Below, piece after piece: positions 1 through 63,917 of a stretch of 64,000 nucleotides of DNA. Position 1 is the stretch's first letter; each line of letters opens with the position of its first letter. This stretch comes from Yuukianura sp. NJ FZ-2021 (lineage: Eukaryota). The position numbers were made by a program, and so were the translations under genes. The notes under the pieces were generated by a model. The model was not told where the DNA came from and ran no database searches. It saw only the letters and a program-made list of their open reading frames with translations. The DNA lies in the NCBI GenBank assembly GCA_046563655.1, contig CM102286.1, forward strand, positions 12,400,001 to 12,464,000, in the 5' to 3' direction.

Positions 1-1601
1 TTGTCCAGCGGCAATGTACATCGTTTCATCCGGAATCGGTAATTTATTATATATTTTTTCGACTTTATGGATTCATTTTTTTTCGTGTTTGATTTCAGGG
101 AGAGTAGGACTGGTTGACTACGACATTGTAGAAATAAACAATTTACATCGGCAAGTTCTTCACAACGAGAAGTCACTGAACATTCCAAAAGTAGAATCCG
201 CCAAAAACTTTCTCAATTCGTAAGTTGCCGATAAGCTGTCAATGTCAACAGTTATATGAATAATTATGTATCAACTTTATTCTGTGATCTTCCAGGCTAA
301 ATTCGTCTGTGATCGTGCATTGCTTCAACGAACCTTTCACATCTCAAAATGCCCTCGAAATCGTCCAAAACTTTGATGTAATTTTAGACTGCACTGATAA
401 TCCCGCGACACGCTATCTACTGAACGACGCCTGTGTTCTTAGCAACAAACCCTTGATTTCCGGAAGGTTAAACTCACTTAAGTATAACTTAAGTAATCGA
501 TGTCATAATTTTATGTAATCCTTTCTGCTTTCTATTAGTGCACTCCGTTTCGAAGGTCAACTGACAACATACAACTGTAATGCTGGTCCATGCTATAGAT
601 GCCTTTTTCCGAAACCACCGCCAATTGAATTTGTAACAAATTGTTCAGACGGTGGTGTATTAGGACCAAGTAAGATTTTTACTTTGAAGAAATCATGTAT
701 GTCAATCCCTAATGAAATTCCCTGTAACTAGTACCAGGAATCATCGGAACTCTACAGGCGCTGGAGTGTATCAAGCTAATCGCTGGAATTGGTCCATCCT
801 ATGTTGGCAAATTGTTGCTATTTGATGGAATGTCGGGGAAGTTCACTGAAATTAAACTGCGAGGGAAACAATCCAGCTGCGCCGTCTGTGGAACTTCACC
901 TACAATATCAGCTCTTTCAGAAGATTATGCATTTGTATGCGGAGGTGGATACGATGATAAAGTAATAAGCATGTTCAAGTTGCTTCAAGAACAATTAGCA
1001 AGCATCTTTCGGCTATAACAAAGATGTTGAATCAAGGCTTCGCAGGCAGAATAATGTGATCTTGCTTTGGTTTCAGGACAAAGGCATAACGTTGCTTGAC
1101 GAGAGTGAAAGGCTCACACCTTTAGAATACAAAATCATGTCAGAAGCGCCACATGTACTTATTGATGTACGAGATCACCAAGGTTTTGAATTCTGTTCCT
1201 TACCAACAACAACGCTCAACTTACCCTACGACGACCTTGAATCGAGTGGCATTCAGAAACTTAAGGCTCATCTTCGAAATGAAAGTTACGACAAAAGCGT
1301 TCCTGGTAAGTTTTATTTTAATAATTTTTTTGAGTTGTTTAGTGTGTGTACAAATCTTATCGTCTAAATTTTTCACTACTACGATCTACATGTATAACAA
1401 TGACAATTGACAAATGAGTTGTTTTGTAAATTATGCATTATAACAGTTATCGTCGTCTGTCGAAGAGGGAATGATTCACAGCGAGCTGTACAGTTACTCA
1501 AAGAAAAGTTTCCAGCAGAATTCAATTTAAAATTTAAGGATATCAAGGGCGGTCTCCACGGTTGGACTAAGGAAGTAGATCCTAATTTTCCAATGTACTA
1601 A
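1..1601 (+). CDS. MOCS3: Adenylyltransferase and sulfurtransferase MOCS3/UBA4 (ThiF/MoeB domain + rhodanese), 5'-truncated by window; exons <1-38, 99-219, 296-466, 539-669, 732-961, 1077-1305, 1447-1601
   Basis: GT-AG exons join in frame giving [56 protein letters not shown], a second CxxC, rhodanese loop CRRGNDSQ and C-terminal VDPNFPMY. Confidence 0.95.
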
Positions 1602-1873
1602 TAACTGAAATTACGCCACTAATTAAACGCAGTGCGGTGAGTTTATGGCTGTCGAGATAACCTGTTTTAATTATAGACGAATCTGGAAATTTTACGCGCA
1701 GTCATCATTCGTAACCAATTCACATTAAGTCAGACGAAAATAACAGAAAGGCTAAATTATGTCCATGACCTCTCTCAAATTTTGACAGTATTTAACTCTC
1801 CCTCTGTCTTATCACACACTCCCAAGTGACCACCTCATTTGCTCATTCCTAAGTCATGTTTAAGGGTCCAAGT

Positions 1874-3017
<1,144 letters not shown>

Positions 3018-3470
3018 TTCTCGTAGAAGGGCGTTCTATCCGTTCGACTTCAAAAGCGTTGACTATTCTGACTTTAGCTGTTCTAAACAAGAGATAAGCA
3101 ATATACGATTAGTAAGAGCTCACGTCAATACTTTTGTCTTATTCAGAAACTGGTTCGGCAAGATTCCCGTTATTTTCTTTCTAAGACTTAAACGCGTATA
3201 AAGAAACCATAAAAGAAAACCACCTACCTTTTAGTACACAAAAGACCTCAGCCACTGAAAACGGAATAAGTCTCAAATGACTGAGGTTTGCATGTGCGAC
3301 TGAAGTGGTTTTGGAATGACTCAAACTTTGAACTAAAGTTAATACGAATGCGTAATGTGGTTGGACGGAGGAACAGGGATTTATTAGAAACAGAAAGATG
3401 ACTAACCTCTGAGTCCGTCGTTCACCAGGGTCGCCCCAAACAAAAATCTTTTGTTAAGCCTTTGGTTAGT
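3018..3470 (-). promoter_or_regulatory. Rab7 5'UTR (non-coding exon ~3340-3228, intron 3227-3083) and proximal promoter, head-to-head with the NKRF-like gene
   Basis: Donor AAAAG|GTAGGT at 3228/3227 and acceptor TTTAG|AACAG at 3083/3082 upstream of the ATG; both are preserved in the inverted copy at 7200-7718. TSS position is inferred. Confidence 0.7.
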
Positions 3471-4530
3471 TCAGTCCAGCTGAGAGGGGTTTAGTATAAA
3501 GACTGGCTTTAAACAAGGACTTCTGGATGATGATGGGACGATGGGAGTTTGATGGGTGTATGTATAACTTTGGATGGATGGAAGATGGATGACGAAGATG
3601 AAGCCACAGAAGAATTTAGCACGTAAATAAATGCTAAACAACAAGTAACAGATATTGAAAGTTATACAAATGTAGAGGAGACTATTCGTATTCAGCCATA
3701 TGCAAAAACAGCCGTTCCAATTCTATTCTGCAGCAGCAAAAGAAAGGAACTGTAGGTATGGTTTTCCGTTTGATTCCGAAAATACCAAATAGAAAATTGC
3801 AAAACCCGAATTTTACTACGGGATAGCTTATTGATTGAATGCGCAAATTAAAAAAAGAGAAACGTACTAGGTAAATACAAAATTTCCAACCTTGATATTT
3901 TTAATTCTAAACCATATGAAGTGATAGGCTTTGTCTAATTACTGATTCCTAAAATGGCTGACGAAAATGGGGAATTTAAATCGTCCCTCGCAACTGATTG
4001 GTCAATTTTGTATTTTTCATGTCACGTGATCCGTTTTTGGAGCCAAAACATATCGCGCATTAGTACAGTTTCACCAATTGCCAAATTCTAAAATGCGAAA
4101 TACCAAAAATTCAAAAAATACAAATGTGAAATACCTGGTTAATTTCGAATTTTAACATACCCTTTTCATGCACCTACATTAGTTAAATTATAGTTAAAAA
4201 TAATTGAAGCAATTAATTCTCTAATTAGTAATGTACAAATTACACAATTATTATTCAAGAGGTTTAGTTCGGTTTGGTAGATGCACTGGTGGCAAAAGAA
4301 TGACAATACAATTCTGGAAACGAATTGCCATTTTGGAATGTCAATCCGTCAAAGGAATTTGTATTTTGTTGTTTATCTGCTGCTGCTGTTCTTCAACACG
4401 GTTAAAATTTGTCAAGATTAAATTCTAAATTCCTCCAATTTTAGGAAAATAGTTAACGACATTAACGTTAACTTAACGCGATATTGAATTAAGTTTGTAA
4501 TTCGGGTGTGAACCAAACCAGAAGAGCAAT

Positions 4531-4911
4531 ATGACGGAAGACGAGGAAGACTGGTCAGTGGATGATCTCCGGACGACCCATGAGTGTGACGAGCACTGGA
4601 TGCTCCGCAAAGCATTTATTCTTCGGAACAAAGGAAAGTTTTCTAAACTCCGATTGTTATCTCTTTCCCAAGTTTTCTGCAACACGGAATTCTTGGGTTG
4701 CAAGTAAGCAAACGTTATTAAACTTTCGCTCAAGGCATTCCTCGGATTCTAATTGTCAATCATACATAGGTACCCTGATGAGACGATGGCACTGGTCGCT
4801 GAGATGGCCGAAGGAATAGTTGAAGAATATCGGAAGAAGCAGAGTGGGCGTTTGCAGAGAACGTTTATCAAAGCTTCCGCTGCTGCTGAAGCTAAGAGCA
4901 AAGGCAAATAA
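4531..4911 (+). CDS. Predicted short XTBD-only isoform (104 aa), PAXT-1/CDKN2AIPNL-like
   Basis: Exon 2 read-through ends ...RLQRTFIKASAAAEAKSKGK-TAA (4909-4911); AATAAA at 5151-5156 followed by a T-rich tract. Confidence 0.65.
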
Positions 4912-6538
4912 TATTTGCAAATCTAATATCACAAACGTAATGATTTTTCCTGCGCTGGTTGTCTATTTTACTTGCAAGATTCGAGATTGTGTTATAAAGT
5001 CTCAGCTCCCCTAGAATCTTGTTTCGATTTTCATTTCATTAGTTTCTCGGGCTGTGTCATGTTCAACTACATCGAGGAGCCATTTATCCTGAAATAGGCA
5101 TAATGTCGTTAATTCTCAACTTAGCAAGTAAATCGTATATCAGCACAGTAAATAAATTTCGTACTTTTCTTTACCTCCAATGGAATTTCTGTTTGAAACA
5201 TTTTCTTACTTCTTTTGTTTCTTATGCAGGGACAAGCTCAGGAAATAACTCTTACTCTATGTCTAAACAGCACGTACCTTCGAGATTTTCCAAGGATTTG
5301 GGGAAACGATATAGTCGAACTGTACCTGAACCTGAGTCTTCTGCGTCTTCACCTTTCCCCTCGCTTCGATATTCATTTAGTCCAACGGATCTCAACGGAC
5401 TGGTTCTGGTCGATCAGCTTTTTTTAACTAGTGATACTTCCGCTCAGTTGATTCATCGCTCTTGTCAAATGTCCGGAAAACAATGTACCTATTCGTTTCA
5501 ACACCAACACACCACAAACCCACCTCAGTAAGTTTGTATCTATTCAAAAATCTTATGTTAAATCGTAATCAAGATGGGTTTACATTGTTTTCCTTATCGC
5601 TATTTGTAGATGTACCTGCACCTTCAAGCTAGGAGAGTTTACAGCTATTGGAACAGGATCTTCCACTGATGCGGCGAAACACGCGGCAGCAGATGCTGCC
5701 CTTACTGAATTACGGAAAGTTTGTCATACAATCCAGGTATTGCAGAAAATTTCTTCATTGAAGAGGGAAATGAAGTTTAATTGATTAATCTACTTAGATC
5801 AAATCTCACGTAACAACATCGGCTGGTGTCAGTTTGCAAGAATTGAAAAGCACCAATGCCCCTATTGCTCTTGATGACAGTAACGTTGGAAACAAGCTCC
5901 TGCGGTTGATGGGCTGGAGTGGCGGAGGTCTTGGAAAATCTGGAACCGGAATTCAGGAACCAATTGAGTAAGTGTTCTTCAAATGTCACATCCAACGCGA
6001 GATTCTAGGGGAATTATGATTTCAGCACGTCTAACTCCATCAATATTGGGCGAAGTCGGCTTGGAATTGGCAGTTCCAAAATCAATGACAAAGAGACATT
6101 TACTGCAAAAGAAGTGGAAGGTTTCCTCACAAAAGAATTTCAGAATCAATCGACTCGTGGCAAGGAGGTAGTATTCTCATCCGACTTTTCCAAGGAAGAA
6201 CGAGAAATCATCCACCGGTATGAATTGAACCGGGCTTATCGTTTACATTTTTCATGTTACACGTGAATGTTAATCTTGAATCTTACTTTGGTTTACATTT
6301 TTGTCTCTTCAGAATCGCTCATCGCCTCCATCTCAAGAGCAAAAGTTACGGGAAAGGAGAAAATCGCTGTCTCGTGATTTCACAAAAAGTTACTCTACCG
6401 GCTTTGCTGCAACAAATTATAAACGATGAGAGTGGATCGGACAAGTATAATGTGCTGTATCCGGAAAACTACGCAAAAAGCATGACTCGAGTGGACGATG
6501 ACGGTGTTTCTGAGGAAAAGACTGCTTTCAGCGTTTGA
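4531..6538 (+). CDS. NKRF: NF-kappa-B-repressing factor-like protein (XTBD + dsRBD-like + G-patch + R3H), ~439 aa; exons 4531-4703, 4770-4903, 5230-5527, 5610-5736, 5798-5967, 6026-6217, 6313-6538
   Basis: XTBD: WSVDDLRTTHECDEHWMLRKAF..NTEFLGCKYP; dsRBD-like GTGSSTDAAKHAAADAALTEL; G-patch SNVGNKLLRLMGWSGGGLGKSGTGIQEPI; R3H FSKEEREIIHRIAHRLHLKSKSYGKG. The exon 2-3 join most plausibly uses a GC donor at 4904. Confidence 0.85.
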
Positions 6539-7199
6539 ATATCACGTTGGACCGGATCTAGTGGGGGAGGGGAAGCAAATGGCCGAGGAGATGTGAATTA
6601 AGTCAGTGTATATTTTTTGGAAGTTGTAAGTCCCACCTCAACAGTATTATTTCATCCCTTCCCGTCATTTTTCTGGTCATAGTGTTAAATAGAATTTGAT
6701 TAATTTCTGAATGTAGGTAGTAGGTAGTACATTCATCAGTGTTTCACCGAAGAGGTGTTATTTACTTTTCCATGTAAATTCTTTCGTTTCGATTGTCGAC
6801 GTGATCCACGTGATATTAAAGCCCCGGACTGCGGTACCGGGCATTGACAATTTTTTGCAGAAATACCGAGTCGATTGACGAATTTTCTTGGAGTTTTAGC
6901 ACTACTGGTATTGGTTTACGTTTAAAAGCGTGAAGTGTACTAGCGCTTAGCGATTTTTTTTTCTCGTTACATATGTCCGGCCGTCCGGGAAGCACAGCAC
7001 TTGACATTTGTTGTGTGTAGAAACATGTGAGAGTGTGCCTGCTCTCATTGTCTCATTCGCATAATACATAAATTTTATTCTAGATTTTAGCGGTTTAGCC
7101 CCAAATTCAGCCGATTTGCGGATTCAGCAGACTAGTCAGACCTCTTGTTTAGGTGCTGTACATGTAGTTAGACTAAAATCAGTCTTTACCCTTCTCAGA

Positions 7200-7718
7200 C
7201 CAAACGCAACCCTACGTTTAACAAAAGCTTTTTTTAGGTGCGAGTGCGACCCTGTCGTGAACGACCCACAGACTCAGAGGTTAGTCGTCTTTCTGTTTCA
7301 AACAAATCCATGCTCCCTGTTCCGTCCAACCACATTACGCATTCGTATTAACTTTAGTTCACTTTCACAGTTCAAAGTTTGAGTCATCTCAAAACCACTT
7401 CAGTCGCACATGCAAGCCTCAGTCATTTGAGACTTATTCCGTTTTCAGTGGCTTAGGTCTTTTGTGTACTAAAAGGTAAGGTGGTTTTCTGTTATGGTTT
7501 CTTTATACGCGTTTAATAAGTTTTTTTTAGAAAGAGAATAACAGGAATCTTTCAGAACCAGTTTCCGAATACTAATAAGACAAGGCGATTGATGTGTGCT
7601 CTTACTAATCGTATATTGCTTTATCTTTTGTTTAGAACAGCTAAAGTCAGAATAATCAACGCTTTTGAAGTCGAACGGATACAACCCCCTGCAAACGTTT
7701 TACTCCTACGACATGGCT
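7200..7718 (+). repeat. Inverted duplicate of the Rab7 promoter, 5'UTR exon 1, intron 1, exon-2 leader and ATGGCT (source ~3470-3012)
   Basis: For example 7391-7475 aaaaccacttcagtcgcacatgcaagcctcagtcatttgagacttattccgttttcagtggcttaggtcttttgtgtactaaaag matches the reverse complement of 3228-3312 with 2 mismatches; donor 7475/7476 and acceptor 7635/7636 retained. Confidence 0.92.
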
Positions 7719-8481
7719 GAAGCACAAGCAGTACCAGAACAGGAACCGGAACCAGCCCCGGAAAGAGACACCATCTCGGTAGAAAGTTTCGAAATTAGAA
7801 AGGAAGTGAGACAGGAAGACGGAGAAGTGACGACAGAGACTTATGACGGACTGGTTGCGAATGTGACTTTCCTGGAATTGGCCAGAGTTCCCGGCCGTCG
7901 GGCATCTGGATTTGTGATTATTACTGAAGAGGGTACGCAAATCTAAGTAACGTTAACCTAACTAACTTAACGTTAAAGGTGGAAGGGAATTGTGTCAGTG
8001 TTACACGTCATCCCAAGCTGATTATGTTTATTTTATATTCATTTGTAATTTAGCTCAACAGATGTTCCCAACATACAGAAATATACGGGTTAAACAACCA
8101 AATTCCATTGTGTATGACGACGAAGATCGTGTCGTTACAGTGAATACCGAGAAACAGAAGATATTTTTAAATCTACCCGCTCAAGGAGACGACGACGATG
8201 ACGATGGTATGAACGCTTACAATTCGCTACGTTAGTTTAATAACGCTGCGGACAACTTACCAAACGTAATTTCTTTGATCCTTATTTATGTTTAGGAGAT
8301 ATCATCACGGAAATCATAGAGTCGTGGAAGACGAAGAAGATCATTTTTGATTCCAAGGTAAGAATCGTTAACATTCGCATTCCAAACGGGCAGGGTGTCA
8401 AATCAGCATGTTGCTAAACTCAAGCTCTCTGATTTTCATCAATATTTTCTTTCTCAGGAGTGGGACACCAGAGCCCTTTAA
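7713..8481 (+). CDS. Orphan protein, 152 aa, acidic and beta-rich (possibly PH-like fold); exons 7713-7932, 8054-8206, 8296-8357, 8458-8481
   Basis: Four GT-AG exons join in frame (phases 1,1,0): MAEAQAVPEQEPEPAPERDTISVESFEIRKEV...YDDEDRVVTVNTEKQKIFLNLP...DIITEIIESWKTKKIIFDSKEWDTRAL*; AATAAA near 8742. Confidence 0.75.
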
Positions 8482-8947
8482 CGTACTATTAATCTACCCT
8501 GAAACAACGCGATGATATTACGGATACCATTGAATTTGAAATGGCTAACTTGAAATCTGATGCGTTTATACTACTCTTTCCTTCTCATCCTGATGTCTTT
8601 GACCTGCAAACGACGTCTCTGCTACTATCTACTGCCTGCTTCTTTGATATTCTTTTAGTTTAATGCTTGAAATCTATTTATTAATAGTATGGGCGATCAA
8701 TATAATTTAATAGAAAAGACTTAGCTAGATAGTTATTTATAAATAAATTAAAACGCTCCTTTCATTGATGATTTATTTTTAGCACCCTCGCAGACACAAC
8801 AGAGAGAATCGTAACCCAGTGTTGTCGACTGAGAGTGGTAGTGCTAGTAGTAGCACTTCTAGCGATGAAAATACTAGCGGGGGAGCTGCCACGGGCGTCA
8901 TAGAATGACTTCGAACCTTAACTTCAAGAATAACAATGAGAATTCAG

Positions 8948-9111
8948 AAATGGGTTATTTTGTAAATTAAGCATTATAACAGTTATCGTCGTCTGTCGAA
9001 AGGCAATGATTCGCAGCGAGCTGTACACGTACAGTTATTACTCAAAGACAAGTTTCCAGCAGAACTGAATCTAAAATTAAAGGATATCAAGGGACGGTCT
9101 ACAGCACTAAG
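8948..9111 (+). pseudogene. Frameshifted copy of the MOCS3 last intron end and rhodanese exon (source ~1412-1571)
   Basis: ttttgtaaattaagcattataacagttatcgtcgtctgtcgaa...aagtttccagcagaa...aaggatatcaaggg matches 1422-1549, with a 1-nt deletion in the CRRGN codons and small insertions. Confidence 0.9.
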
Positions 9112-9250
9112 GTAAGTGTGGTTCAAATGTCATGTCCAGCGCGCGATTCGACGGGAATAACTTAATTGTGCTTATGTTTTCTATGTTGTTTTTTTAGCAC
9201 TTCAAATTCCATTAATATTGGTCGAGGCCGGCTTGGAATTGGAAGTTCAA
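9112..9250 (+). pseudogene. Copy of NKRF-like intron 5 and start of exon 6 (source ~5968-6080)
   Basis: gtaagtgtggttcaaatgtcatgtccagcgcgcgattc vs 5968 gtaagtgttcttcaaatgtcacatccaacgcgagattc; ag|cacttcaaattccattaatattggtcgaggccggcttggaattggaagttc vs 6026 onward. Confidence 0.85.
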
Positions 9251-9254
9251 GATT

Positions 9255-9625
9255 AACAGTATTATTTTGTCCCGTCAGTTGTCTGTTGATAGTGTTAATA
9301 GCATTTAATTAATATCTGAATGTATTCATCAGTGTTTTCCCGAAGCCGTGTTCCTTATTTATTTTTCCTTATGTAATTTTTTATTTCGTTTCGATTCACG
9401 TTATATTAAAGCCGCCGGACTGCAGTTCGGGGCATTGATAAGTTCTTGCAGAAATATGGAGTCGATTGAACTATTTTCTTGGAATTTTAGCACCACTGTT
9501 ATTCCCTTTGAAAGCGCAGCGATTTTTTTCTCGTTGTAGGTATGTCCGTGACGTCGCGGGAAACATATAATAACATTTGTTGTTTTGTAGAAGAAACACG
9601 TGAGAGACTGCTTTCATTCTCACAA
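9255..9625 (+). repeat. Direct duplicate of the NKRF-like 3'UTR/downstream region (source ~6640-7055)
   Basis: Collinear matches: aacagtattattt, atagtgttaa, attcatcagtgttt, tttcgtttcgatt, tattaaagcc..cggactgc, gcagaaata..gagtcgattga, agcgattttttt..ctcgtt, agaaaca.gtgagag. Confidence 0.88.
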
Positions 9626-9890
9626 TTAATTTCACAATGAAAATGATTTGCGTGATAATCATGAATTTAGTAAGTAAACAATTTCCTCATATGACGATTT
9701 AGGCAATAGGTTCAGAGTTGTCGTCCCCGTCGCCGTCCTTGTTCTGGAATTCAATTAAGGTTGGTACTAGGTAAGAAACCATTTCTTCTATTTGGTGTTT
9801 TTCACGTGAACGTTAGAACGTTTGTTCTTGTTGCTAACTTTATCGTTTGTTCGTTTGTTAGTCATTTTCGTTGGAGTTGTCACCAACGAC

Positions 9891-12251
9891 ATGAGCTTAA
9901 GTAGGAAATTGTTCACGGCAGGATTGGCAGGAGCTACGGGACTTACACTTGCCACTGCTCTGCTCTCTCCTGACGACAACATTTTTAATTCCAGCGGTCC
10001 AGTACGCTTTGGCCGAGCGGCCATAACAGTGAGTGACAAATACGTTTGAAATTACGAAGCTCATCATTGGCTACCTTTCAATCTTGTTATGATTTCCAAA
10101 TTGTTATTGGGTTTCAGATGGCCAGTATAGCAGCTGATTACAAATTCAGTGTTTACGTGAACAAGCTTCCGGATGATCCTAAGAAAGCGGAGCGTATTTG
10201 GTCGGATGTAAACTTACAAATATCACCATTTCATAATCTTTAAACTGATATTGTTGTTTCGGTTTACTTGAACAGGTCCATCACCGTTCTGCCGTTAGAC
10301 TTTTAGATCTCTGTAAACGGAATAAAGGCGTGTTTGTAAAGGTTGGACAGCACATTGGTGCTTTGGATTATTTACTGCCTCAAGAGTATACTCGAACCCT
10401 TCGAATCTTACACAATCAAGCCCCTTCATCTCCAATTGAAGATGTTTTCAAAGTTTTAGAAACTGATCTTGGACGCAAGGTACTACTATAATCGTTTAAT
10501 TTGAAAGTTAGTTTAAGTTTTCGGACAATCACATTTTCACATTACCACTTTTCATTTTCTCATGTTTCATAGGTGGAAGATGTATTTACTGAATTTGGGG
10601 ATACTCCTCTTGGTGCTGCTTCTCTGGCACAAGTCTACAAAGCCAAATTGACGTCCGGGGAGGTTGTCGCCGTCAAAGTTCAACATTTGAATGTCCGTGC
10701 CCACTCTTACGTTGACATCAAGACAATGGAGGTGCTTGTTCATGTCGCTGCCTGGATGTTTCCAGACTTCAAACTTTTGTGGCTTGCAGAAGAAATGAAG
10801 AAAAATTTGCCACAAGAATTAGATTTTTTACAAGAAGGTCGTAATGCTGAGCACATGGCAAAATTGATGAAGCGCTACAAATGGCTGAAGGTTCGTTTTC
10901 AGTTCCGTAACTTACGTATTTCATTGTCGCAAAGTTTGACCTTGGCTTTTTTAGATTCCAAAAATTTATTGGGATTTGAGCTCTCACCGAATATTAGTTA
11001 TGGAGTACTGTGATGGTGGCCTTGTAAACGACTTAGATTATATCCTTCGCAACAAAATTTCACCACGAGAAATTGCAACAAAACTCGGCAACTTATTCTC
11101 CGAAATGATATTTATTCACGGCAATTTACACTGTGATCCTCATCCCGGAAACATTCTTGTTCGGAAAGATGAAAACGGAAATCTCGAGGTCACCCTGTTA
11201 GACCATGGCCTTTACACTGTAAGTTTCCCTAGTCCAGTGTCTAATTTTTTGAAAACTGCGGCCTCATACCAAAGATTTTTTTTATTCAAACAGATAATTT
11301 CGAACGACGTCCGGTACAACTACTCCAACTTATGGTTAAGTATTCTGAGCTCAAATGTCAACGGAATCAAGCAGTACAGTAAAGCCTTGGGAGTGGAAGA
11401 GCTTTACGGTATTTTCACAGCCATGATCACAGCTAGGTCCTGGGAGGCCATTTCCAGCCCAGAAGGAATCGCGAAGAAAAAATTAACGGATACAGAGGTA
11501 CGTAGTTCGAGATAGTACTTCGTAAAGTTTTCAAAAATTCCTCAAAAACTTATAAAATGTCATACATAATACAGAAAGGAGAAATACAACGAAAAGTTGC
11601 CGAGTATGCTGTGCAGATATCCGTAGTCCTTGACCGCGTTCCACGAGCCATGATCATGCTGTTGAAAACGAATGACTTACTTCGTGGCGTCGAGCACACA
11701 CTCCGAACTCAGAAAACGTAATGTTTCCGTATTCGTGTACAGTCAAAACCCTCATTGCGCAACGCTTAGCATCGCCTCCCCTGACGGCGGGATACCGTAA
11801 AACTTTTCTAGAATGATTTCACTTGTAATCCAAAAAAAAAAAAAAACACTTCGGACAGTCGAACATCTCGGATGTACAATTTGAAGCCTTACAGTTAGGC
11901 GCGATAGTTTTTTAAATGCAAACCGACCAATCAGAGAGTGTTGCGAAATGAGGGGTTTGACTGTATACCGTAATATACGCCTACAAATATGCATGACTTT
12001 TTTAACGAAATTTAATGTAATGCTATTCTACTTTTTGTTTCAGAATGTCCTCCTTCACTACAATGTCCAAATTTTGCGTTCGTGCCGTGTACGACGAACA
12101 TATTCGCCTGTGTAGTACCGGTTTCTGTCGTTTCAAGTTTAAGCTTATCAAACATTGGACAATATTTAAAATCCGTTTATATGAACTTTATTTATGGGCC
12201 AATCATGTTGTTAGCTCAACTCTAGGAAATGTAGACGATGATTACTGGTGA
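9891..12251 (+). CDS. ADCK1: AarF domain-containing kinase 1 (ABC1/UbiB family), ~522 aa; exons 9891-10028, 10118-10207, 10276-10479, 10573-10890, 10955-11218, 11294-11497, 11575-11717, 12044-12251
   Basis: NKGVFVKVGQHIGALDYLLPQEY (KxGQ), PLGAASLAQVYKA, VAVKVQH, ELDFLQEGRN, LHCDPHPGN, LLDHGLY, LLKTNDLLRG. Confidence 0.95.
11740..11963. mobile_element. MITE, same family as 2175-2356 (opposite orientation), in last ADCK1 intron
   Basis: TA|CAGTCAAAACCCTCATTGCGCAAC ... GTTGCGAAATGAGGGGTTTGACTG|TA; shared subterminal ccaatcagag motif. Confidence 0.8.
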
Positions 12252-14008: not shown

Positions 14009-14161
14009 TACCGTAAAACTTCAGTTTGAGGAGGTTTCATTTGTAAACAAAACAAAACGTTTTTGGTGGTCCAGTACCTCAAATGTGTTGAATTTACAAT
14101 AGTTACTGTAACTTTTCCAACCAGCCAATCAGAGCGTGTTGCGTAATGAGAGGTTCTACTG
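14009..14161. mobile_element. Left-truncated copy of the same MITE family
   Basis: Internal taccgtaaaactt (also at ~11793) and right end ccaatcagagcgtgttgcgtaatgagaggttctactg|TA; left TIR not found. Confidence 0.7.
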
Positions 14162-14476
14162 TACTTCTGTATGGAAGAAACTTGACGCTTCTGCGGCATC
14201 ATACCTTGGTTTTATTGTAAGGAAATAAAGTTTACAGAACATTGTTTTAAATAACAAAGGCATTGTAACATACAGTTAAGTTATAAATTATCCTGTTTTC
14301 CAAAATGGTTTTATAACCTAAAGACTAAATTTGTTTTTGACTATTTGTGTTTAGTGTCCTACAGGAATTCAATCTCCCCCTGCTCGTATTCTCTCCAGAA
14401 CTTTTACACTTGTGAAGATTGAAGATTCCCTTTGGAATGTGTGAGAAGATCTTCCTAGGAAGGCTTAAGTTGTACC

Positions 14477-56578: not shown

Positions 56579-59500
56579 TTAGTCATCTGAGAAGTCAGAG
56601 TCAGACTGTGCCTTGCCCTCCATGGGTTCCTCCGGAGGAGGTTTGACCTCTTCCTTGACGACTGTAGCTGCCAAATTGTAAGTGGCTGGTGTGACCCCTT
56701 GAGTGTGCTCTACTTCAACTACGTACTCGTGTCTCGAGAGGTACTTCACAAATTTCTCTGGGGGTTCATCACACATCGGCACTGAAACTGATCTACAAAC
56801 TGTATGAGATATGGTAGTATGTGGCATGGTGAATTCCACGTAGCAGTACTTTGTCAAATTAGCCGGGATTTCTTCATGTGGCTGAAGTGTAATGTGGCAA
56901 AAGAACGAATGAGTCGTGTATGCTCCTAGAATTTCAACCAAAAATTTTCAATTTGACTTATTTTTTACAAAAGGAAAATCCAACAAAAGGGAAATAAAAA
57001 AAAAGTAATGTTAACAATTTTTTTGACTTTATAACCTAAAGTCGCCACAGATTTTTAAATTCATTTTCTGCATAATTCCAGTGTGGGAGTTTTTTTTTCA
57101 AAATTGAAATTTATTTTCGTTTTTCGAAAGTGAAATTTTTGAAAAAACGGGTAGTGGCTACCTTGTCCTTCCTTAGGGAGTCGTGCGACTCGCCAAACAA
57201 TTGCTTTGTGCTGATGTTCGTACTTGGCTTGTCCAGAAGTGACTTCCATGAGGCTGTTTTCTACAGCTTCAACGGCGCCAAGAAATCGTTCAATCCCCTT
57301 AACTTTCCCACTCCTAGGAAAATGGACAGTTTAGATCAGGGTGCTTGAAGCATTTGAGGGTGCTTAGCGTGAATGTTATGGGAATGCGTAAGGTTAGGTT
57401 GACTTTGACTAAGGAAACCAAGACGTACCTGCGATGAGCTGATTTGACAGATCCGTATCTAAAGTGCTTCTCCACTCGGAACATATAAATCCAACACTCC
57501 GGAATAGGAATTCGAATCATTACGTCTTCACAAGGGATCTGTCCAAGCTTCCGACTTGTAAAGCCAGGAACTAAAATATCGCACCGAATCTCTATCCGGT
57601 GTCCCGTCGTTGTAAAAACTGTTTTGACCTGCAATGGCAACTCTCTGTGTCGTGGCGGTCGCACACGAAAGCGAAGCAGTTCGATGTAACATGCGTCCAA
57701 CGGTTTGAACCTATAAGTAGCCAAAATTTAAACAAAATCTTGTTACATCAAGCTAATAAAAATCGTAAAATTTGCGTAAAAAAGTGTCATAAAAGTTGAT
57801 TCTTTTTTAATGCATCGGCGTTGAAAAAACAATAAAGAAATCATTCGAGTTAAAAATTCATTTCTTCACCGACGAATGGCGTCCAAAACTGTACAAAAAA
57901 AACTGAAACCATAAACCAATTTCTTTAAAAGTTTTCAGTCGTCGCAAAAAAACGGCCGGAGAAAAAATATTTCCTACATTTTTTTTTAAAAAAAGAAAGA
58001 AGAAAAAACAGTTTTATAGCGTGATTTATAATCTCTTACAAGAATGACATTCAAATGGATTTTTAAAAATTTTGTTTGTTGTTTTTTTTTAACTTTTTCT
58101 TAGACTGTATTATCTGAGTGGTATATTTTAGAATGAACTTACTTGACCATTTTCGTTTCGTTAAAGACGTCGAGTTGAACGCAACTGCTAAATTCAATGT
58201 CTTCAGTTCGGATCCACTCTTCGGTGGCAATCGGAATGATGTCGTGTCTCCCTACTACTTCCTTGCCCTGTCTCCGAATGTCGTTGATGCCCAACTCCAC
58301 TTCTGCTTGACCCGACAGAAACGACAGAAAGTAGAGTCTAACCCGTGCTATTTGTTTCGTCACTACACCATGAGCATCTTGTTCTGCATAAAACTCGTCC
58401 ACTAAGGTCACTTGGACCTCCTCTGACTTGTAGGTCAAAGCTCGGTCACGGTGAACAGGAAGGCGAAACAGAGCTTCTTCAATTACCATACTGAATTGCT
58501 TCATTTCTTCGTAGTTCTGAGTTCCTAGTTTCACTAGTTGAGAAACCTAAAAACCATTTTATATTAGATTTAGCCCAAAATTGGGGCACTGTGAAACTTA
58601 CGCGCCTAAAGTTCTTTTTTCTATACAAAAAATTTTACCTGTGGCGCATGCTCGAGCGGGAGTCCCAACTTTTTCAAATCGCTTCCAAATTCCTTCACGC
58701 CTTGATAATCTCCCTGAATGGCATACGCTGCAAACTGACTCAGTTTGGTCGTAATTCTCTCCGCTTTTGTAATTTGCCCGGGGCGTACTCCTGGTCGCTC
58801 TTTATAAAAGACGTACTGCAGCTTTGCAGTGAATATTTTTCCAAACTGATCAAATTGTTGAGCCGCTAAAATAAAAAAAAAGTTTTGAATATAAGTGTCA
58901 AAATTTCAAATTTTAACGTGAATGAAAAAATGAAAACGTTCTTACCAATGTCTGAAACGGAGTAGCATGGTTGCAGCGGTATTTCTTGAATAGGGTCCTT
59001 GTCCTTGGCTGTATTGAAAATCTGGACAGTCGGAATGTCATTTACTGGAACCAGTCTAACGTAGACTTTCTTCCAGAACCTTTGTCCAGTAATTTTCTTT
59101 TTGTTAGGGTGTCTCATCTGCATTTCCCAGCCATCTCCAGAGAACTTAATCCTGGGAAAGTCTTCCAGCGGCTGAGACTGATCTTCTTCAAACAACGGAG
59201 TCTGCGGACTGTCTTGTGAGTCTGACCTTGGAACGGCCCCACCGCCCCCTTCACCTGGAGCAACTTTCACCGAAGACAGAAATGGAACAAACGAACTGTT
59301 ATTGTCTTCACTGTATGCAGATCCGGTAGATATTGCTGGACTTTTTGGGGGAGGAGCCAAAGAGGGAACCAAGTCCAAGTTGAAATCGTTTTTCTCCTTT
59401 TGCCTTCAAAAAATAAAGAAATTAAAAAAAAATGGTTAAAGTTAGATGAATTTTTAGAAATTTTGACATTCAGTTTCAGACTTAGGTTTACCTTATGGTA

Positions 59501-61432
59501 ATGGATAAGCTAGGTTCAGGTTTATCAAAATCGTCACTGCCGCTGTTCATTCTGGATTTTGCGGGAGTACTTTGTGGAACTGGCGGTGGTTCTCTGAGAG
59601 ACAAAAATTCGTCAAACTTGTCTTCTCCGAAACCTCCCGAAGAGTCTCCGAAACCACCAGAAGAGTCACCAAAACCTCCTGAACTGTCACCAAACCCGTC
59701 ACTTTTTGTTACTTCGTCACCCCAAGCTGGAATTTTAAATTAAAAAAAAAATCAATTTTAAATTGAACAAAATCTAAACTTTTTTTTTCAAATTTAGCCT
59801 ACCCGAAGCAACAGTGGGTGCCGATCCGTCGAATGCTCCGAAAGCATCTTGACCTCCAGCAGAGCCGTCCGCTTCCGTTACACTGTTGAACCGGTCTTCA
59901 AACGAGTCAAAATCAACTTTCTGTTGCGGAGGTTGAATTGTCGCCTGCTGAAATGCCGCCGGCGGCGGCGGAGGTTGTGGTGACGGTGTTGGTGGGTACA
60001 CGCGCGGTGCTGGTGGGACAGGCGGCGGTCCACGACCTTTTGGCATCTCAACGGCTGCTGTAAGAGCGTCGACTGAAAACGGTGAGCTCGTTTGATTTTG
60101 GGCAAATGGAGACGGGGAGGGGCAGGGAGCCGGTGGGACGTGGGGCGGAGTCGGAGCTGAAAATGGCGACGACGGGTCAAATGTCGTCTGCGGTGCAAAA
60201 AACGGTGATGAATCGTAATTTGTCGTCATCGGAGCAATTTGTTCAGCTTGTGCTTCAGGTTTCGGTGGTTCAAAAATTGACATAGAATCGGCTGCCGGTG
60301 GGGTTTGTTGTTTAGGTGAGGCAGCAGGAACTGGTGTTGGTGGGTCTCGTCTGGGAGATGGTGGGACTGGTGGGGGTGGGCGTGAGGGGGAAGGTTTTGG
60401 CGGTTGAGTTGGCCTTGATGGTGGCAACTTTTCAGGCATTTTGACTTCGGCAGGTTTTGGAGGCTCAACTTCAATTGGCTTGCTGACTGGCACTATTTCT
60501 GGTTTCATTTCAAATTGTATTGGTGGCTCTGGAGTCGGTTTTGGTGGGGATGAAATATGTTTTGGTGGTTCCGCAGTTGGTTTTGGTGGTGATGTAATGG
60601 GTTTTGGTGGCTCCGTAGTGGGTTTTGGTGGCTCATAAGTTGGTTGTGGTGGAGCAGCGTCTATGTTGAGATCAAAGATGTCTCCCAGTGCGTCAGTTTT
60701 TGTTGGTGGCTGTGCTTGTTGTTGTTGAATTTGTTGAAAGAATGGCGACTGTTGCGGTTGGAAATCCGAAACGAGCGGAACGTCTCCAAACGGCTGAGAA
60801 TGAGTTTTTGGCTGTTCTGGCGGTTTGCCGTAGAGCCCCATCAGATCAATCGTCGTCGTACTTTCAATTGTTTTCGGCGGAAAATTTGAATTGACAAAGG
60901 GATGATGATGGCTCGAAGTCAAATCTTCGTCGCCCATAAGAAGATCAGGAGATGGCGACCTTGGAGAGGGCGTGGGCGACGGTGGCTGTGGAACTGGACT
61001 TGGCTGAGCATACCTCAAGCGATCCAGAAGCGAATCGCTTGTGGCTTCCAGCGCTCCAGTGACTGTCGATAACAGATCTTGTGTGGCTGTTGACATTGGC
61101 TGAAGCTGTTCCAGTTCTGAAACGCTTCCATAACTAGTTTGCATCTCATTCCAGCTATTAACTCCAGTTTCTGTAGCTCCAATGAATCCAACACCAACAG
61201 ACGTTTGTGGTGCAACAAAATCTGCAAATGGATTTCCTGCTCCATACGCCGCTGAAACTGACGTCATTGACGCTAAAAACGGATTTTCGTTTTGTGTCGG
61301 TTGTGGCTGCTGTTGAAACGAAAAAACTTCGCCGCTAAGGAACGGATTTGAAGCAACAGCGGCATCTCCAGCTCCGTTTCCATATTGTGGCACAGTGTGC
61401 TGCTCCACTTCACTTAAAAATGGATTAAACAT
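56579..61432 (-). CDS. stnB: Stoned B / stonin (NPF motifs, Pro-rich region, stonin-homology and mu-homology domains), ~1244 aa; exons 61432-59803, 59726-59492, 59403-58946, 58865-58639, 58546-58143, 57710-57429, 57313-57162, 56925-56579
   Basis: Four NPF motifs; GWEMQMRHPNKKKITGQRFWKKVYVRL; mu-homology KFKPLDACYIELLRFRV, YGSVKSAHRR, AKYEHQHKAIVWR, VEFTMPHT..VRS-like segment. Confidence 0.95.
59626..59697 (-). repeat. Coding tandem repeat (GFGDSSG)x3 + GFG in stoned B exon 2
   Basis: 21-nt units with synonymous variation: GGGTTTGGTGACAGTTCAGGA / GGTTTTGGTGACTCTTCTGGT / GGTTTCGGAGACTCTTCGGGA. Confidence 0.85.
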
Positions 61433-61523
61433 TTTGAATTTTAAAAACTTTTGTTTTAATGAAAGAAAAACTTTTAGTTTTAAAAGTTCTAAAACCAAAG
61501 TTTTAAGTTTTTTCTTTCACAAA
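61433..61523 (-). other. Putative intercistronic spacer (91 nt, AT-rich, no ATG) between the stoned A stop and stoned B start
   Basis: stnA TGA at 61526-61524; stnB caaaATG at 61432; the two ORFs are in different frames. Confidence 0.8.
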
Positions 61524-63917
61524 TCACGCGAATGACGTATCAAACGGATCGATTTCCTCTTCAAAATCAGGAATCGGCGTGGGTGGAGCTGCCGCGGGAA
61601 TATTTGGCGGCAACGAAAACGTATTTTGAGTTCTCTCCAAAGTTGCTTGACGAACTACCGGTTGAAAATGGGCTGATGCCAACTCTTCTTCTAGCAATTT
61701 GGCTTCAACTTTTCCTGGAAGAATTCCAGTTACTGCTGAAGTGTCAAATGGATCTTCAAAAGAACTGTTTCCAGCAGCCTGAGGTGACAACGGTCGATGA
61801 TGTTCAACTTCCGCCAAATCTCCGTCGATAGAGTCAAACGGATGCAAACTCTGCTGACGTGGTGGCTCACTTGACACAATTGAAGTAATACTCGTGGATT
61901 GTAAAACTTTGAAATTTTTAAGCGGGCAAATTCGGGGAGGAACGAAATCTTGAGTGGAATTTAAAAGTTCGGATTCGAGTTCCTTCAATTCGTTTTTTCC
62001 TGGAGCAAAAGTGTCCACGACGTCAGAAGTGTCAAATGGATCTTCAAATTCTTTTTCAAATTGTTTTGCCGCTGAATACGGTAATGTTGGTTGCGATTTT
62101 AGAGGTGGATGTCGTAGTTCTAAAATTTCGTTGATGCAGTCGTCAGGAGCGTCCAAAGGATGATATTCCTGTTGCGCAGGCGCGGCAACGGTAGAATTTA
62201 GTATTGAACCGGCAAAATCCAAATTTTGAAACGATTTGTCTGATTCTCCGGGAGTGATAAGTTCGTCTTCGAGAAGTCGGAGTTCTGACTTTCCCGGAAT
62301 CGCAATATGCGATACTGCGGAAGTATCGAATGGGTCGATTTCTTCTTCGTCTTTTGTTTGTGGCGTGAGTGCTGCTGTTTCAAAATTTGAATCGGGATGA
62401 ATTATATCCAGAGGATGAAATGACTCTTGTGGTGGTTCGTCTTTTCTTGGATCAAAGTCAAAATCGTCAAGAGATTCAGCTTTTTGAGATACTCCTGGCG
62501 GTTCTGGTGGTGCTGACAAAGATACCGCCTCTGGCGGGGTCAAAGGTTGGCAAACCGCAGGTAAAACTGATTGGTCACTTTCACTATTTAGCAATTCGTC
62601 TTCAAGTTGTCTCAATTCTGATTTGCCAAACCCGAGTTTCTCAACCACTGAAGTATCAAATGGATCAACTTCAACTTCTGCAGCACTTTCACTTAAAACT
62701 TCAACTTTTGTTGGAACAAGATCATCTTCCGTACGAAACCAAGCATCATCATCATCATTCACGCCGATTTCTGCTTCTTCTACTTCCGGTTGTGTGAGAA
62801 GGTCAAGGTTTGACACTTGAGATTTTCCTCCGACTGGTTTGATTGGTTCGTCACTTTCAAATTCACGAACTAAATCTGAAAAATCTAATTCCGCTGGTTC
62901 AGTTTTTGTTTTCGCTGCGGCTGGAACTGGTTGCGGTTGCGCAGATTCAGACGAATCGTCACCTCCATCAAATCCAAGAAGGTCAACATGCACAGGACGA
63001 CCTCTTTTGGTCTTTTTGATTTCTTCTGTTTTGTCTTCGTATGGAACAGTTTTTGAAACTGGAGCAGCGTCTCCCTTTTTAGTTAAAACTTCAACTGCAC
63101 AGCCCAAGTTAATTTTCCGTTTTTCTTTTACTTCTTCTTCCTGGATTTTCTTAACAACGTCGGCTACTGCTGAAGTGTCGAATGGATCGTCTCCGTCGTC
63201 AGCCTCTACTGGACTGTCTGGAATGTAGGCCAATTGGATTTGGCCAGTTTCGATAGCATCGAGATAAGAAGTATCAAATAATCCATCGTCCAAAACAACA
63301 ATTTCTTTCTCAACTTCTTCGAATTTTAGTACTTCTGGTTTCGGTTCAGCAGGAGTTGGCTGTAATTAATAATTAAATATTTAGATTCCTATTTTTAACC
63401 TTGAACACGCGCAGCTCTCGTCACAAGTTGCTCAAAAATTTATAATTTTGAGGAGTTTCGAAAAAAAATTTACCAGAGGAGGTCCCCAGGAACCATCAGT
63501 TTCGTCAGTTGTGGGAGAAAACGGTTGATCAGAGTGAAAGTCTTGTGATTTCTCAACGTCTTCCCACTGAACTTTCTTTTCTTCAACAACAGCAGCAGAA
63601 ACTTTCTTTTGGTAGTAACTTGTAGTTTTGATTCGATCAAGGTCACCCGAAGTTTTTTTCAAAGTCACGTCAATCCCAGCAGTCAGTTGCTTAAATCGAG
63701 CCCATTCGTCATCTTGTTCAGAATCAGGAGCAGTGGCGGATTTTTTTGAATCAGGATTTTCAGATTCTGTAGCAGTAGAAGTCCCTTCACCACTTTCAGC
63801 CTTCCTTTCCTCAAGTTCTTTTTTGAATTTGGCTAAATTCTCGGGGTCAAATAAGTCCTCTTCCTTGTCCTTCTTCCCTTTGATTTTCTTCTTAATCCCT
63901 TTCTTGATTTTTAGCAT
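61524..63917 (-). CDS. stnA: Stoned A, 759 aa, acidic, with DPF motifs; exons 63917-63474, 63359-61524
   Basis: MLKIKKGIKKKIKGKKDKEEDLFDPE, EWARFKQLTAGIDVTLKKTSGDLDRIKTTSYYQ, LAYIPDSP, six DPFDTS motifs, four GKxE(L/A)xxLExEL motifs; upstream acceptor at 63952/63951 implies a 5'UTR exon outside the window. Confidence 0.93.

Follow-up and report, generated by a model that had tools for sequence, protein, structure and literature searches.

Introduction

In Drosophila, chimeric genes arise by partial or tandem duplication in the cases described by Rogers, Shao & Thornton (2017, PMC5460883), and the account of Stewart & Rogers (2019, PMC6776367) describes new genes made when a rearrangement fuses other DNA to an existing gene's 5' end. 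Of the 29 inversions in the account of Ranz et al. (2007, PMC1885836), 17 had non-repetitive sequence duplicated in inverted orientation at their breakpoints.

The chimeric genes catalogued so far are mostly young, still segregating, and of uncertain fate. Here we describe a locus at which the history of such a gene can be read. It was analysed within a stretch of 64 kb of Yuukianura DNA, referred to below as the window. At this locus a small gene carries homology to the 5' end of Rab7 at its front, Rab7 itself is intact, and the frame continues into unrelated sequence; it is a real chimeric gene, made by the known route of 5'-end capture and partial duplication. Our preferred explanation, to which a probability of roughly 0.6 is assigned, is a chimeric protein-coding gene with an inverted Rab7 front and an unrelated body, its frame kept by purifying selection, with putative transcription from the copied promoter.

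Results

The inverted copy of the Rab7 front

The repeat search of the window returned eight pairs of inverted repeats (3028-3467 versus 7208-7690), self-blastn gave one alignment (3028-3457 versus 7690-7218; 84% over 473 columns, E 1.4e-144), and in a MAFFT alignment the Rab7 homology was recognizable from about 7172/3513 to 7718/3012. All three confirmed the inverted copy of the Rab7 5' end that a sequence-only reading of this DNA had placed upstream of the frame. The coordinates of all features are given in table 1.

Within the copy (7172-7718, plus strand) the donor and acceptor of the leader intron are present, as is ATG GCT. With a slash marking the junction, the donor reads AAAAG/GTAGGT in Rab7 and AAAAG/GTAAGG in the copy, and the acceptor TTGTTTAG/AAC is the same in both; the earlier statement that both sites were kept is correct. 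ATGGCT is likewise the same in Rab7 and the copy, and over the 42 alignment columns that follow, 32 bases are aligned and only 9 of these are identical, which bears out the proposed switch to unrelated sequence after these two codons, the only ones that the small gene shares with Rab7. The proximal part of the copy (7321-7475) contains a perfect block of 41 nt (7321-7361, 100% in the repeat search) and an insertion of 13 nt; TCAGTC occurs in it twice, and it has an upstream frame of 6 codons common to Rab7 and the copy. Owing to an in-frame stop at 7653-7655, the first ATG of the coding frame is that at 7713.

The parent is unbroken: the spliced Rab7 frame is open and intact (207 aa), and Pfam Ras matched its exons with E values of 1e-25 and 5e-8. 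In the 5' region of Rab7, exon, intron and start site were assigned from the sequence only.

Table 1. Features of the locus and of the parental sequences. Score, positional composition score in frame versus the two other frames; K, divergence from the parent.
Feature	Position	Strand	Remarks
Rab7 coding region (parent gene)	1874-3017	-	Exons 2988-3017, 2723-2872, 2389-2607, 1874-2098
Rab7 5' region (parent of the copy)	3018-3513	-	From alignment and splice sites
Rab7 leader	3018-3082	-	
Rab7 leader intron	3083-3227	-	
Rab7 non-coding exon and proximal promoter	3228-3369	-	
Rab7 distal upstream part	3370-3513	-	
Parent of duplicated flank	6617-7055	+	Self-blastn
Copy, distal upstream part	7172-7320	+	32/134 mismatches, K 0.287, neutral level
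Copy, proximal promoter and putative non-coding first exon	7321-7475	+	4/142 mismatches
Copy of Rab7 leader intron	7476-7635	+	160 nt versus 145 nt in Rab7; GT..AG kept
Leader exon through ATG GCT	7636-7718	+	Rab7 homology ends at 7718
Predicted coding exon 1	7713-7932	+	73 codons plus 1 nt; score +0.274 versus -0.70/-0.53
Predicted coding exon 2	8054-8206	+	Score +0.238 versus -0.42/-0.55
Predicted coding exon 3	8296-8357	+	Score +0.248 versus -0.80/-0.40
Predicted coding exon 4	8458-8481	+	7 codons plus stop
Putative 3' UTR	8482-8765	+	AATAAA at 8742-8747; end approximate; read from sequence
41-codon open frame	8783-8908	+	Good acceptor, AG 8781-8782; phase fits exon 3; score +0.119
Decayed direct copy, MOCS3 last intron and last exon	8922-9110	+	Parent 1386-1577; 84% over 183 columns
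Decayed direct copy, NKRF-like intron and exon piece	9112-9248	+	Parent 5968-6076
Direct copy, 3' flank of NKRF-like gene	9233-9624	+	Parent 6617-7055; K 0.290, 9 gap events

Predicted frame, product and searches for relatives

From the ATG at 7713 the frame runs intact for 152 codons (459 nt) over four exons, all introns being GT..AG, and it has an AATAAA of its own, in agreement with the earlier description. The splice sites and intron lengths of the small gene (89-160 nt) resemble those of neighbouring genes; its first exon, its start site and all four of its splice junctions are predictions. The predicted product has 152 residues (17.4 kDa, pI 4.3), is acidic, lacks cysteine and histidine, and shows by eye no signal peptide or membrane segment. 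The 41-codon open frame behind the putative 3' UTR, for which a Pfam search found no family, may, with some uncertainty, represent an alternative or former last exon of the small gene.

Pfam, homology, PDB and representative searches were run exon by exon on contiguous translations, and are weaker for that reason; in these searches no homologue, Pfam family or solved relative was found for any coding exon. There was no homologue of exon 1 among 89 word candidates, and the homologue search with exon 2 found none. Pfam, applied to the exon translations and the open frames of exons 1-2 for a Rab/Ras GTPase domain, returned no family. Two sets of hits were discarded: the three matches of exon 1 among 1.84 billion representatives were long repeat proteins that aligned with a short stretch rich in Glu (spurious), and Pfam Chordopox_G3 on exon 2 reached E 0.15 and 13 bits against a cut-off of 22. 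A fast-evolving control exon (5232-5528) of the real NKRF-like neighbour was also without a homologue. The databases thus lack close relatives, the blank obtained with the small gene says little, and the label 'orphan' that it had been given is not supported.

Fragments downstream and age of the duplication

Behind the small gene, at 8922-9624, stands a cluster of partial duplicates of the same age, which was absent from the earlier account. These direct copies are colinear with 1386-7055. The frame of the MOCS3 fragment is broken (K 0.14-0.17; gaps of 1, 9 and 1), and the NKRF-like fragment has a K of 0.266 in its intron part and 0.176 in its exon part. Two of the internal joints of the direct copies show microhomology of 1-2 nt and 9 nt, the latter (TTGGnAGTT, one mismatch) lying where the copy of the 3' flank joins the preceding NKRF-like piece. 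The sequence directly after the parent flank (7056-7171) had no match elsewhere in the window.

Unconstrained pieces share their divergence, with K values of 0.290 for the flank, 0.266 for the NKRF-like intron and 0.287 for the Rab7 distal upstream part, and pieces with one constrained copy lie at about half of this (0.139-0.176). The equal K of the unconstrained pieces (about 0.27-0.29) favours one complex local duplication.

Low-divergence tracts

The UTR exon had been described as little diverged and the intron as strongly diverged. The low divergence is real, but the simple contrast between exon and intron is wrong, as two near-identical tracts (K 0.03-0.04) straddle the two splice junctions of the leader intron. 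Of 182 aligned bases in the tract at 7321-7516, which takes in 41 nt of intron, 5 are mismatched (K 0.028); in the tract at 7597-7681, which takes in 39 nt of intron, 3 of 84 are mismatched (K 0.037). The middle of the leader intron is at the neutral level (12/67 mismatches, K 0.205), and the 31 nt upstream of the ATG are poorly conserved (8 of 19 mismatched, plus a 12-nt gap). An Rfam search of 1-12000 for a non-coding RNA gene in the tracts gave 0 matches at E up to 1 and no tRNA.

The uneven divergence had been taken as a sign of selection on the UTR and hence of expression. This conclusion does not hold, since tracts that cross exon-intron borders and lie tenfold below neutral are explained equally well by gene conversion. 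That gene conversion, rather than selection, keeps the Rab7-type copies alike in the tracts is a serious possibility, rated somewhat short of an even chance and compatible with the main explanation; the tracts would then be uninformative on the use of the copied promoter. Inverted repeats a few kilobases apart are classic substrates for gene conversion, and those described here stand 3.7 kb apart. The two tracts lie within a background of K 0.2-0.29 and are less diverged even than pieces with one constrained coding-exon copy (K 0.14-0.18); both extend into the intron, and one has the 41-nt perfect block. Against gene conversion, each tract is centred where constraint is expected, at a splice junction or in the promoter-proximal region, an indel of 13 nt has survived midway along the tract at 7321-7516, and the sequence just before the ATG, together with the ATG context, has diverged freely.

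The 13-nt insertion of the copy breaks a promoter-proximal block that otherwise matches Rab7 perfectly, and ahead of the ATG the copy has gained 12 nt relative to Rab7. Among contigs of four public runs (X1-X4, presumed to be DNA), indel variants at 7349 and 7366, inside the same block, were found in X1, X3 and X4. Such indels, in the copy and in the variants, are not what would be expected if the copied promoter were tightly constrained. It is a distinctly doubtful proposition that both tracts (promoter-proximal region, first exon and donor flank; acceptor flank and leader start) are under selection at both loci, and that the cassette was reused whole, putting a lineage-specific acidic protein under Rab7-type transcriptional and 5'-leader control. 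If this were true, the new protein would be tied to the late-endosome programme, and the inverted pair would make the NKRF-like block between its members invertible.

Coding potential and survival of the frame

The positional composition score of the whole frame was +0.253 bits per codon versus -0.57/-0.47 off frame, a score that reflects amino-acid and positional make-up only, for which reason an acidic frame scores well. It was above zero in each of exons 1-3, and five real genes, scored by leave-one-out, gave +0.05 to +0.175. The exon-1 frame ranked first by this score among 124 control frames of at least 75 codons, frame and splice sites having been picked by a reader seeking an open frame. 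GC content by codon position (0.57/0.36/0.45) is similar to that of real genes. Synonymous codon choice is uninformative in this genome: the scores of real genes lie near 0, and that of the small gene was equalled or exceeded by 45 of 120 control frames.

In simulated neutral decay (K 0.14 per lineage) the ATG, the frame and 12 splice bases stayed intact with P 4e-5 to 1.4e-4, and at half the age with P about 0.006-0.01, where the indel rate was that measured on the duplicated flank and the coding body was assumed to be as old as the flanking duplicates. Because the frame has outlived neutral decay and its composition is gene-like, the small acidic-protein gene is probably a working gene. Purifying selection would have kept the coding frame since the join, and transcription would most likely start from the Rab7-derived promoter, with the leader spliced as in Rab7. 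The output of the small gene would follow the broad expression of Rab7 and share its mRNA start.

It appears unlikely that the rearrangement is real and the fused frame nevertheless a silent relic, unexpressed or non-functional, a recent or lucky survivor amid duplication debris. Such an outcome would suit the adjoining copies (8922-9624), which are plainly dead fragments, the searches that found no homologues or domains for the coding exons, the frequency of frames of at least 75 codons (167 in the window), the uninformative synonymous codon score, and the indels of the promoter-proximal block in the copy and in variant haplotypes. It is opposed by the frame-specific composition of three consecutive exons, with the exon-1 frame at the head of its controls, by the survival of the ATG, the frame and six coding splice sites next to neighbouring decay (P about 1e-4), and by the dead fragments alongside, which have frameshifting gaps over a much shorter length.

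Origin of the chimera

The architecture proposed from the sequence, in which promoter, non-coding exon, intron, leader and ATG-GCT, all derived from Rab7, are fused to an unrelated four-exon frame, was upheld, as was an origin at the DNA level rather than by retroposition, since introns are retained. We infer that about 550 bp of the Rab7 5' end (upstream region, first exon, leader intron, leader and two codons) was copied in inverted orientation and joined in frame to an unrelated body of four exons, complete with a stop and a poly(A) signal of its own. The join would have been made in one complex local duplication, via template switching or end joining with microhomology, and the same event would have left the broken MOCS3 and NKRF-like pieces directly behind the new gene. 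The coding body has no paralogue within the 64-kb window. Its three introns in phase, its poly(A) signal and its gene-like composition make it the more likely alternative that it was already coding before the fusion.

A different origin, which we consider possible but improbable, is that the inverted copy came from staggered breaks when the NKRF-like block (3514-7171, 3.7 kb) underwent a micro-inversion, in the manner of Drosophila-type inversions. Filled-in staggered ends duplicate the sequence between the nicks, inverted, at both ends of the block; the body would then belong to a gene already resident there, which lost its own 5' end and received the copy in its place. This alternative concerns the origin only and would allow the gene to be functional. 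The inverted copies at 3012-3513 and 7172-7718 flank the NKRF-like block as the staggered-break model lays out, and an X4 contig joins both copies on opposite strands, which could reflect exchange between them. The model leaves unexplained, however, why equally diverged fragments in direct orientation lie at 8922-9624; the former 5' end of the body was not found on the minus strand of 3514-4530 (best local alignment 20, reached by 60 of 300 shuffles), and none of the open stretches that border on the predicted old junction has an in-frame ATG. The 9-mer ATGGCTGAA at 3691-3699 (minus strand) is identical to the start of the small gene, but the identity goes no further than these nine letters and was treated as chance.

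Very improbable is the reverse direction, in which the cassette was native to the small gene and Rab7 took the copy. With two copies and without an outgroup the alignment alone gives no direction, but the small gene lies amid derived, broken neighbour copies of the same age and Rab7 within the intact parental series; a Met-Ala start, moreover, presumably fits Rab7 proteins, and was counted against this direction. Capture by a transposon (Helitron, Pack-type) was also considered: the repeat lists contain no terminal inverted repeats or element ends around 7056-9624, every piece that could be identified stems from within 8 kb, and capture was rejected, a local rearrangement being preferred.

Arrangement in contigs of public runs

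Contigs of public runs from two studies show the same arrangement, with copy-specific flanks on both sides. The records of X2 cover 3340-7350 and 7424-9183, that of X1 covers 4756-7312, and those of X4 cover 7203-7478, 7645-8516 and 8487-10000. That the inverted copy is a misjoin of the assembly is hardly credible: among the contigs listed none spans 7351-7423, the core common to Rab7 and the copy, but about 16% of the alignment columns differ between the copy and Rab7, which are also set apart by several indels, and this marks the copy as a separate locus; contigs, too, run from unique DNA into the copy (the X1 contig and the first of X2) and from the copy into the coding body (the second of X2 and 7645-8516 of X4).

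Among the differences listed, the sole exonic one is 8151 G>A in exon 2, which is synonymous and present in all four runs, and the sole indel between 7713 and 8481 is intronic (8273). One X4 contig joins 3198 (opposite strand) to 7645; if this joint is real, that organism lacks the acceptor and the greater part of the leader intron.

Discussion

At this locus a housekeeping control cassette was captured entire, through the second codon. The dead fragments that probably arose in the same event adjoin the gene and provide an internal neutral clock, which the coding frame has outlasted. If transcripts confirm the preferred explanation, the locus would be a natural experiment on how much promoter and leader a re-headed gene needs and keeps, and it could tell whether paired regulatory copies are kept alike by selection or by gene conversion.

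Like the Drosophila duplication chimeras described in PMC5460883, the small gene has the 5' regulatory part and start of a parent joined locally to other sequence, with the parent left intact and regulatory elements shuffled. Unlike the chimeras of that account, the captured piece is inverted and ends after codon 2, so that it holds almost no parent protein; unlike the segregating variants treated there, the event is old (K about 0.28), and it is known from sequence alone. With the cases given in PMC6776367 the small gene shares start signals and a frame start inherited from an existing 5' end in one mutational step; those cases, as described, extend into untranscribed DNA, whereas the body joined here has in-phase introns and a poly(A) signal.

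As in the staggered-break inversions covered by the account in PMC1885836, a block of genes lies between two inverted copies of a sequence that was ancestrally unique and is partly genic; the present locus differs from them in the same-age direct fragments that adjoin it and in the inverted copy having become the front of a gene, and inversion of the block itself is only hypothetical. In its DNA-level, non-homologous joining near the parent, the small gene resembles Hun Hunaphu, which is described in PMC1463047 as an X-linked testis chimera formed by illegitimate recombination.

Structure of the chimeric gene

The small gene of 152 codons at 7713–8481 is a chimera fronted by an inverted copy of the Rab7 control region. 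A repeat search of the window returned eight inverted repeat pairs tiling 3028–3467 against 7208–7690; self-blastn aligned the Rab7 5' region with the copy in a single alignment (473 columns, 84% identity, E 1.4e-144) and MAFFT traced the homology from about 7172/3513 to 7718/3012. The donor of the leader intron follows AAAAG in both copies and the acceptor, TTGTTTAG, precedes an AAC common to both; ATGGCT is the same in both, and beyond it 9 of 32 aligned bases match. Both alignments, the conserved splice sites and the identical ATGGCT bear out the sequence-only reading, which had recognized an inverted copy of the Rab7 promoter, UTR, intron and start codon. Its description of an intact four-exon ORF after ATG GCT was likewise correct as to exons, GT..AG borders and an AATAAA of its own, located downstream of the frame at 8742–8747. 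The ATG at 7713 is the first of the frame because an in-frame stop lies at 7653–7655. The opposite direction of transfer, with Rab7 as recipient, is unlikely because the small gene sits amid derived fragments.

The first nine bases of the frame, ATGGCTGAA, recur at 3691–3699 (minus strand) between Rab7 and the NKRF-like gene, probably by chance since the match is not extended. Just before the MOCS3 fragment, a strong acceptor opens onto a serine-rich frame of 41 codons (8783–8908) that is in phase with coding exon 3 and may represent an alternative last exon or one formerly used.

Features of the window and contigs aligned to its first 10 kb
Feature	Position	Strand or orientation	Remarks
MOCS3/ThiF-type gene	to 1601	+	open spliced frame, ThiF matches
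Rab7	coding exons 2988–3017, 2723–2872, 2389–2607, 1874–2098	−	207 aa, Ras matches
NKRF-like gene or gene pair	4531–6535	+	XTBD, dsrm, G-patch and weak R3H matches
Small gene with Rab7-type front	coding exons 7713–7932, 8054–8206, 8296–8357, 8458–8481	+	459-nt open frame, GT..AG at every intron; in first 12 kb, between NKRF-like and ABC1/ADCK genes
Copy of MOCS3 last intron and exon	1386–1558 to 8922–9103	direct	84%
Copy of NKRF-like intron and exon piece	5968–6076 to 9112–9248	direct	83–84%
Copy of NKRF-like 3' flank	6617–7055 to 9233–9624	direct
ABC1/ADCK kinase gene	matches at 10573–11512
Contigs, run X1	4756–7312
Contigs, run X2	3340–7350, 7424–9183
Contigs, run X4	7203–7478, 7645–8516, 8487–10000

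Gene neighbourhood

The window (38% G+C) has short GT..AG introns and AATAAA signals and is eukaryotic in character. The XTBD-coding frame of the NKRF-like region (4531–4911) meets a stop at 4909–4911, ahead of the dsrm, G-patch and R3H exons, so that the region may comprise two genes or a donor 5' of the stop may be used. Rab7 intron 3 contains a palindromic MITE-like element (2173–2358; terminal inverted repeats of 25 nt, separated by about 136 nt) with related copies at 11735–11968 and 14119–14163; contig depth was raised two- to three-fold across 2005–2672 and many contigs ended at 2327 and 2358–2360, so the element looks like a multi-copy genomic repeat. Four minus-strand frames at 56582–58546 matched the adaptor-complex medium subunit family, and an AP mu-type gene is therefore present. 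Two very long open frames lie back to back on the minus strand (59777–61516 and 61527–63365; 580 and 613 codons). Their composition scores, +0.15 and +0.21, are gene-like; Pfam gave no family for either at E up to 0.001.

Contig support

Contigs from four public DNA runs, three of one sample and one from a different study with a different organism label, were compared with window 1–10000. The contig records in independent data therefore join the copy to unique DNA on its left and to the coding body on its right; the independent support is that of X4, because the best-covering run may be the window's own source sample. Among the contigs listed, none crosses 7351–7423, the segment most like Rab7's copy. 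In the block otherwise identical to Rab7, a variant haplotype (+A at 7349, −2 nt at 7366) was minor in X1 and X3 and the sole form in X4. One X4 contig runs from 3198 on the opposite strand, within the Rab7 leader intron, directly into 7645, in the small gene's leader exon; it skips the equivalent of 7507–7644, and its shorter arm measures 55 letters. If real, this joint could mark an allele in which the copy of the X4 organism is without most of the leader intron and the acceptor, or an exchange of sequence between the copies; as its depth is 7 and it lies in a repeat, a graph artefact is also possible.

Origin of the chimera

Self-comparison revealed three direct-orientation copies, colinear with the intact genes, immediately 3' of the small gene; these are absent from the sequence-only reading. 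Their frames are broken, and microhomology was present at two joints (1–2 nt at 9110; TTGGnAGTT at 9248). For the body of the small gene (7719–8921) and for 116 nt at 7056–7171, blastn, tblastn and tblastx gave no other match in the window. After pairwise realignment, K of the pieces without obvious constraint was 0.290 for the flank (93 mismatches in 387), 0.266 for the NKRF-like intron piece and 0.287 for the Rab7 distal upstream region; where one member of the pair functions as a coding exon, K was 0.139 and 0.176, about half the unconstrained values. These values fit one age for all pieces.

One complex event is favoured, by replication template switching or by breakage and end joining with microhomology, in which the block would have been duplicated and, at the junction, the Rab7 5' piece inserted in inverted orientation together with the body. 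A tandem duplication later trimmed by microhomology-mediated deletions would give the same picture. As the Rab7-type copies flank the NKRF-like block, a 3.7-kb micro-inversion of that block could also be proposed, in which staggered breaks would have produced the copy and given a new front to a gene already resident there; Ranz et al. (2007; PMC1885836) found inverted duplications at the breakpoints of 17 of 29 Drosophila inversions and proposed staggered breaks. We consider this unlikely: the body should formerly have abutted the minus strand from 3514 onwards, but the two had no extended similarity (best local score 20, a value that 60 of 300 shuffles also attained), the open stretches at the predicted junction contain no in-frame ATG, and the direct fragments of the same age at 8922–9624 are left unaccounted for.

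Uneven divergence of the Rab7-type copy

Two tracts of the copy diverged far less than the neutral rate: 7321–7516 (5 mismatches in 182, K 0.028, P 1e-15) and 7597–7681 (3 in 84, K 0.037, P 3e-7). Outside them divergence was near-neutral (distal upstream 0.287, mid-intron 0.205), and the 31 nt 5' of the ATG were the most changed (8/19 mismatched plus a 12-nt gap). The contrast between UTR exon and intron pointed out earlier is real (4/142 versus 15/145 mismatches, Fisher P 0.016) but is not the best description, since the tracts cross exon borders, reaching 41 nt into the intron past the donor and 39 nt before the acceptor. The first tract contains, in order, a 41-nt perfect block, a 13-nt insertion in the copy, and two TCAGTC motifs (resembling an initiator motif) and a six-codon upstream frame common to both leaders. 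The position of the tracts at splice junctions leans towards constraint on promoter-proximal and splice-proximal sequence at both loci, in which case the copy would be in use. Their divergence, lower than that of half-constrained coding exons, leans towards gene conversion, the repeats being inverted and 3.7 kb apart; with two sequences, either reading fits.

Coding status

Five window genes (1,303 codons in total) served to train a codon-position score. The frame of the small gene scored +0.253 bits per codon, whereas the two other frames gave −0.57 and −0.47; exons 1–3 each repeated the in-frame-positive pattern; the five real genes scored +0.05 to +0.175 (leave-one-out). Ranked against 124 control frames (at least 75 codons, outside the training genes), the exon-1 frame was first and the exon-2 frame tenth. 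Limited to synonymous choice the score was about zero, real genes included, so the signal reflects amino-acid and positional composition alone. At the three codon positions, GC was 0.57/0.36/0.45. Neutral decay was simulated with substitution and indel rates from the neighbouring dead copies, survival being defined by ATG, open frame, absence of frameshift and 12 splice bases; its probability was 4e-5 to 1.4e-4 at full age and 0.006–0.01 at half age. The dead MOCS3 piece alongside has frameshifting gaps inside 130 nt. Of the differences listed for the four runs, the exonic one is a synonymous G>A change at 8151, and the single indel within 7713–8481 falls in an intron. Composition, retention and variation together are best read as a selected coding gene, with a model picked for openness and an assumed age of the body; judged from sequence, the small gene is probably functional.

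The predicted product (152 residues, 17.4 kDa, pI 4.34) has 34 acidic and 18 basic residues and an Asp run; Cys and His are absent. Neither the single exons nor the open frames containing exons 1–2 matched a Pfam family, and an exon-wise search of the PDB gave no relative of exon 1 or exon 2. A word-indexed homology search with exon 1 and a homology search with exon 2 gave no match; an exhaustive search with exon 1 gave three matches only, all repeat proteins, which were rejected as relatives. A fast-evolving exon of the genuine NKRF-like gene (5232–5528), used as control, was equally blank, and the libraries are therefore without close relatives of the organism. Thus, of the earlier interpretation as an orphan gene under an inverted Rab7 control region, the chimera stands and the term orphan cannot be claimed.

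Comparison with known chimeric genes

The small gene adds a further case to the known chimeric genes with a captured parental 5' end. What is particular here is that the captured piece is inverted, stops after codon 2 and brings along a complete leader intron, and that the event is old, with a neutral clock inside the locus.
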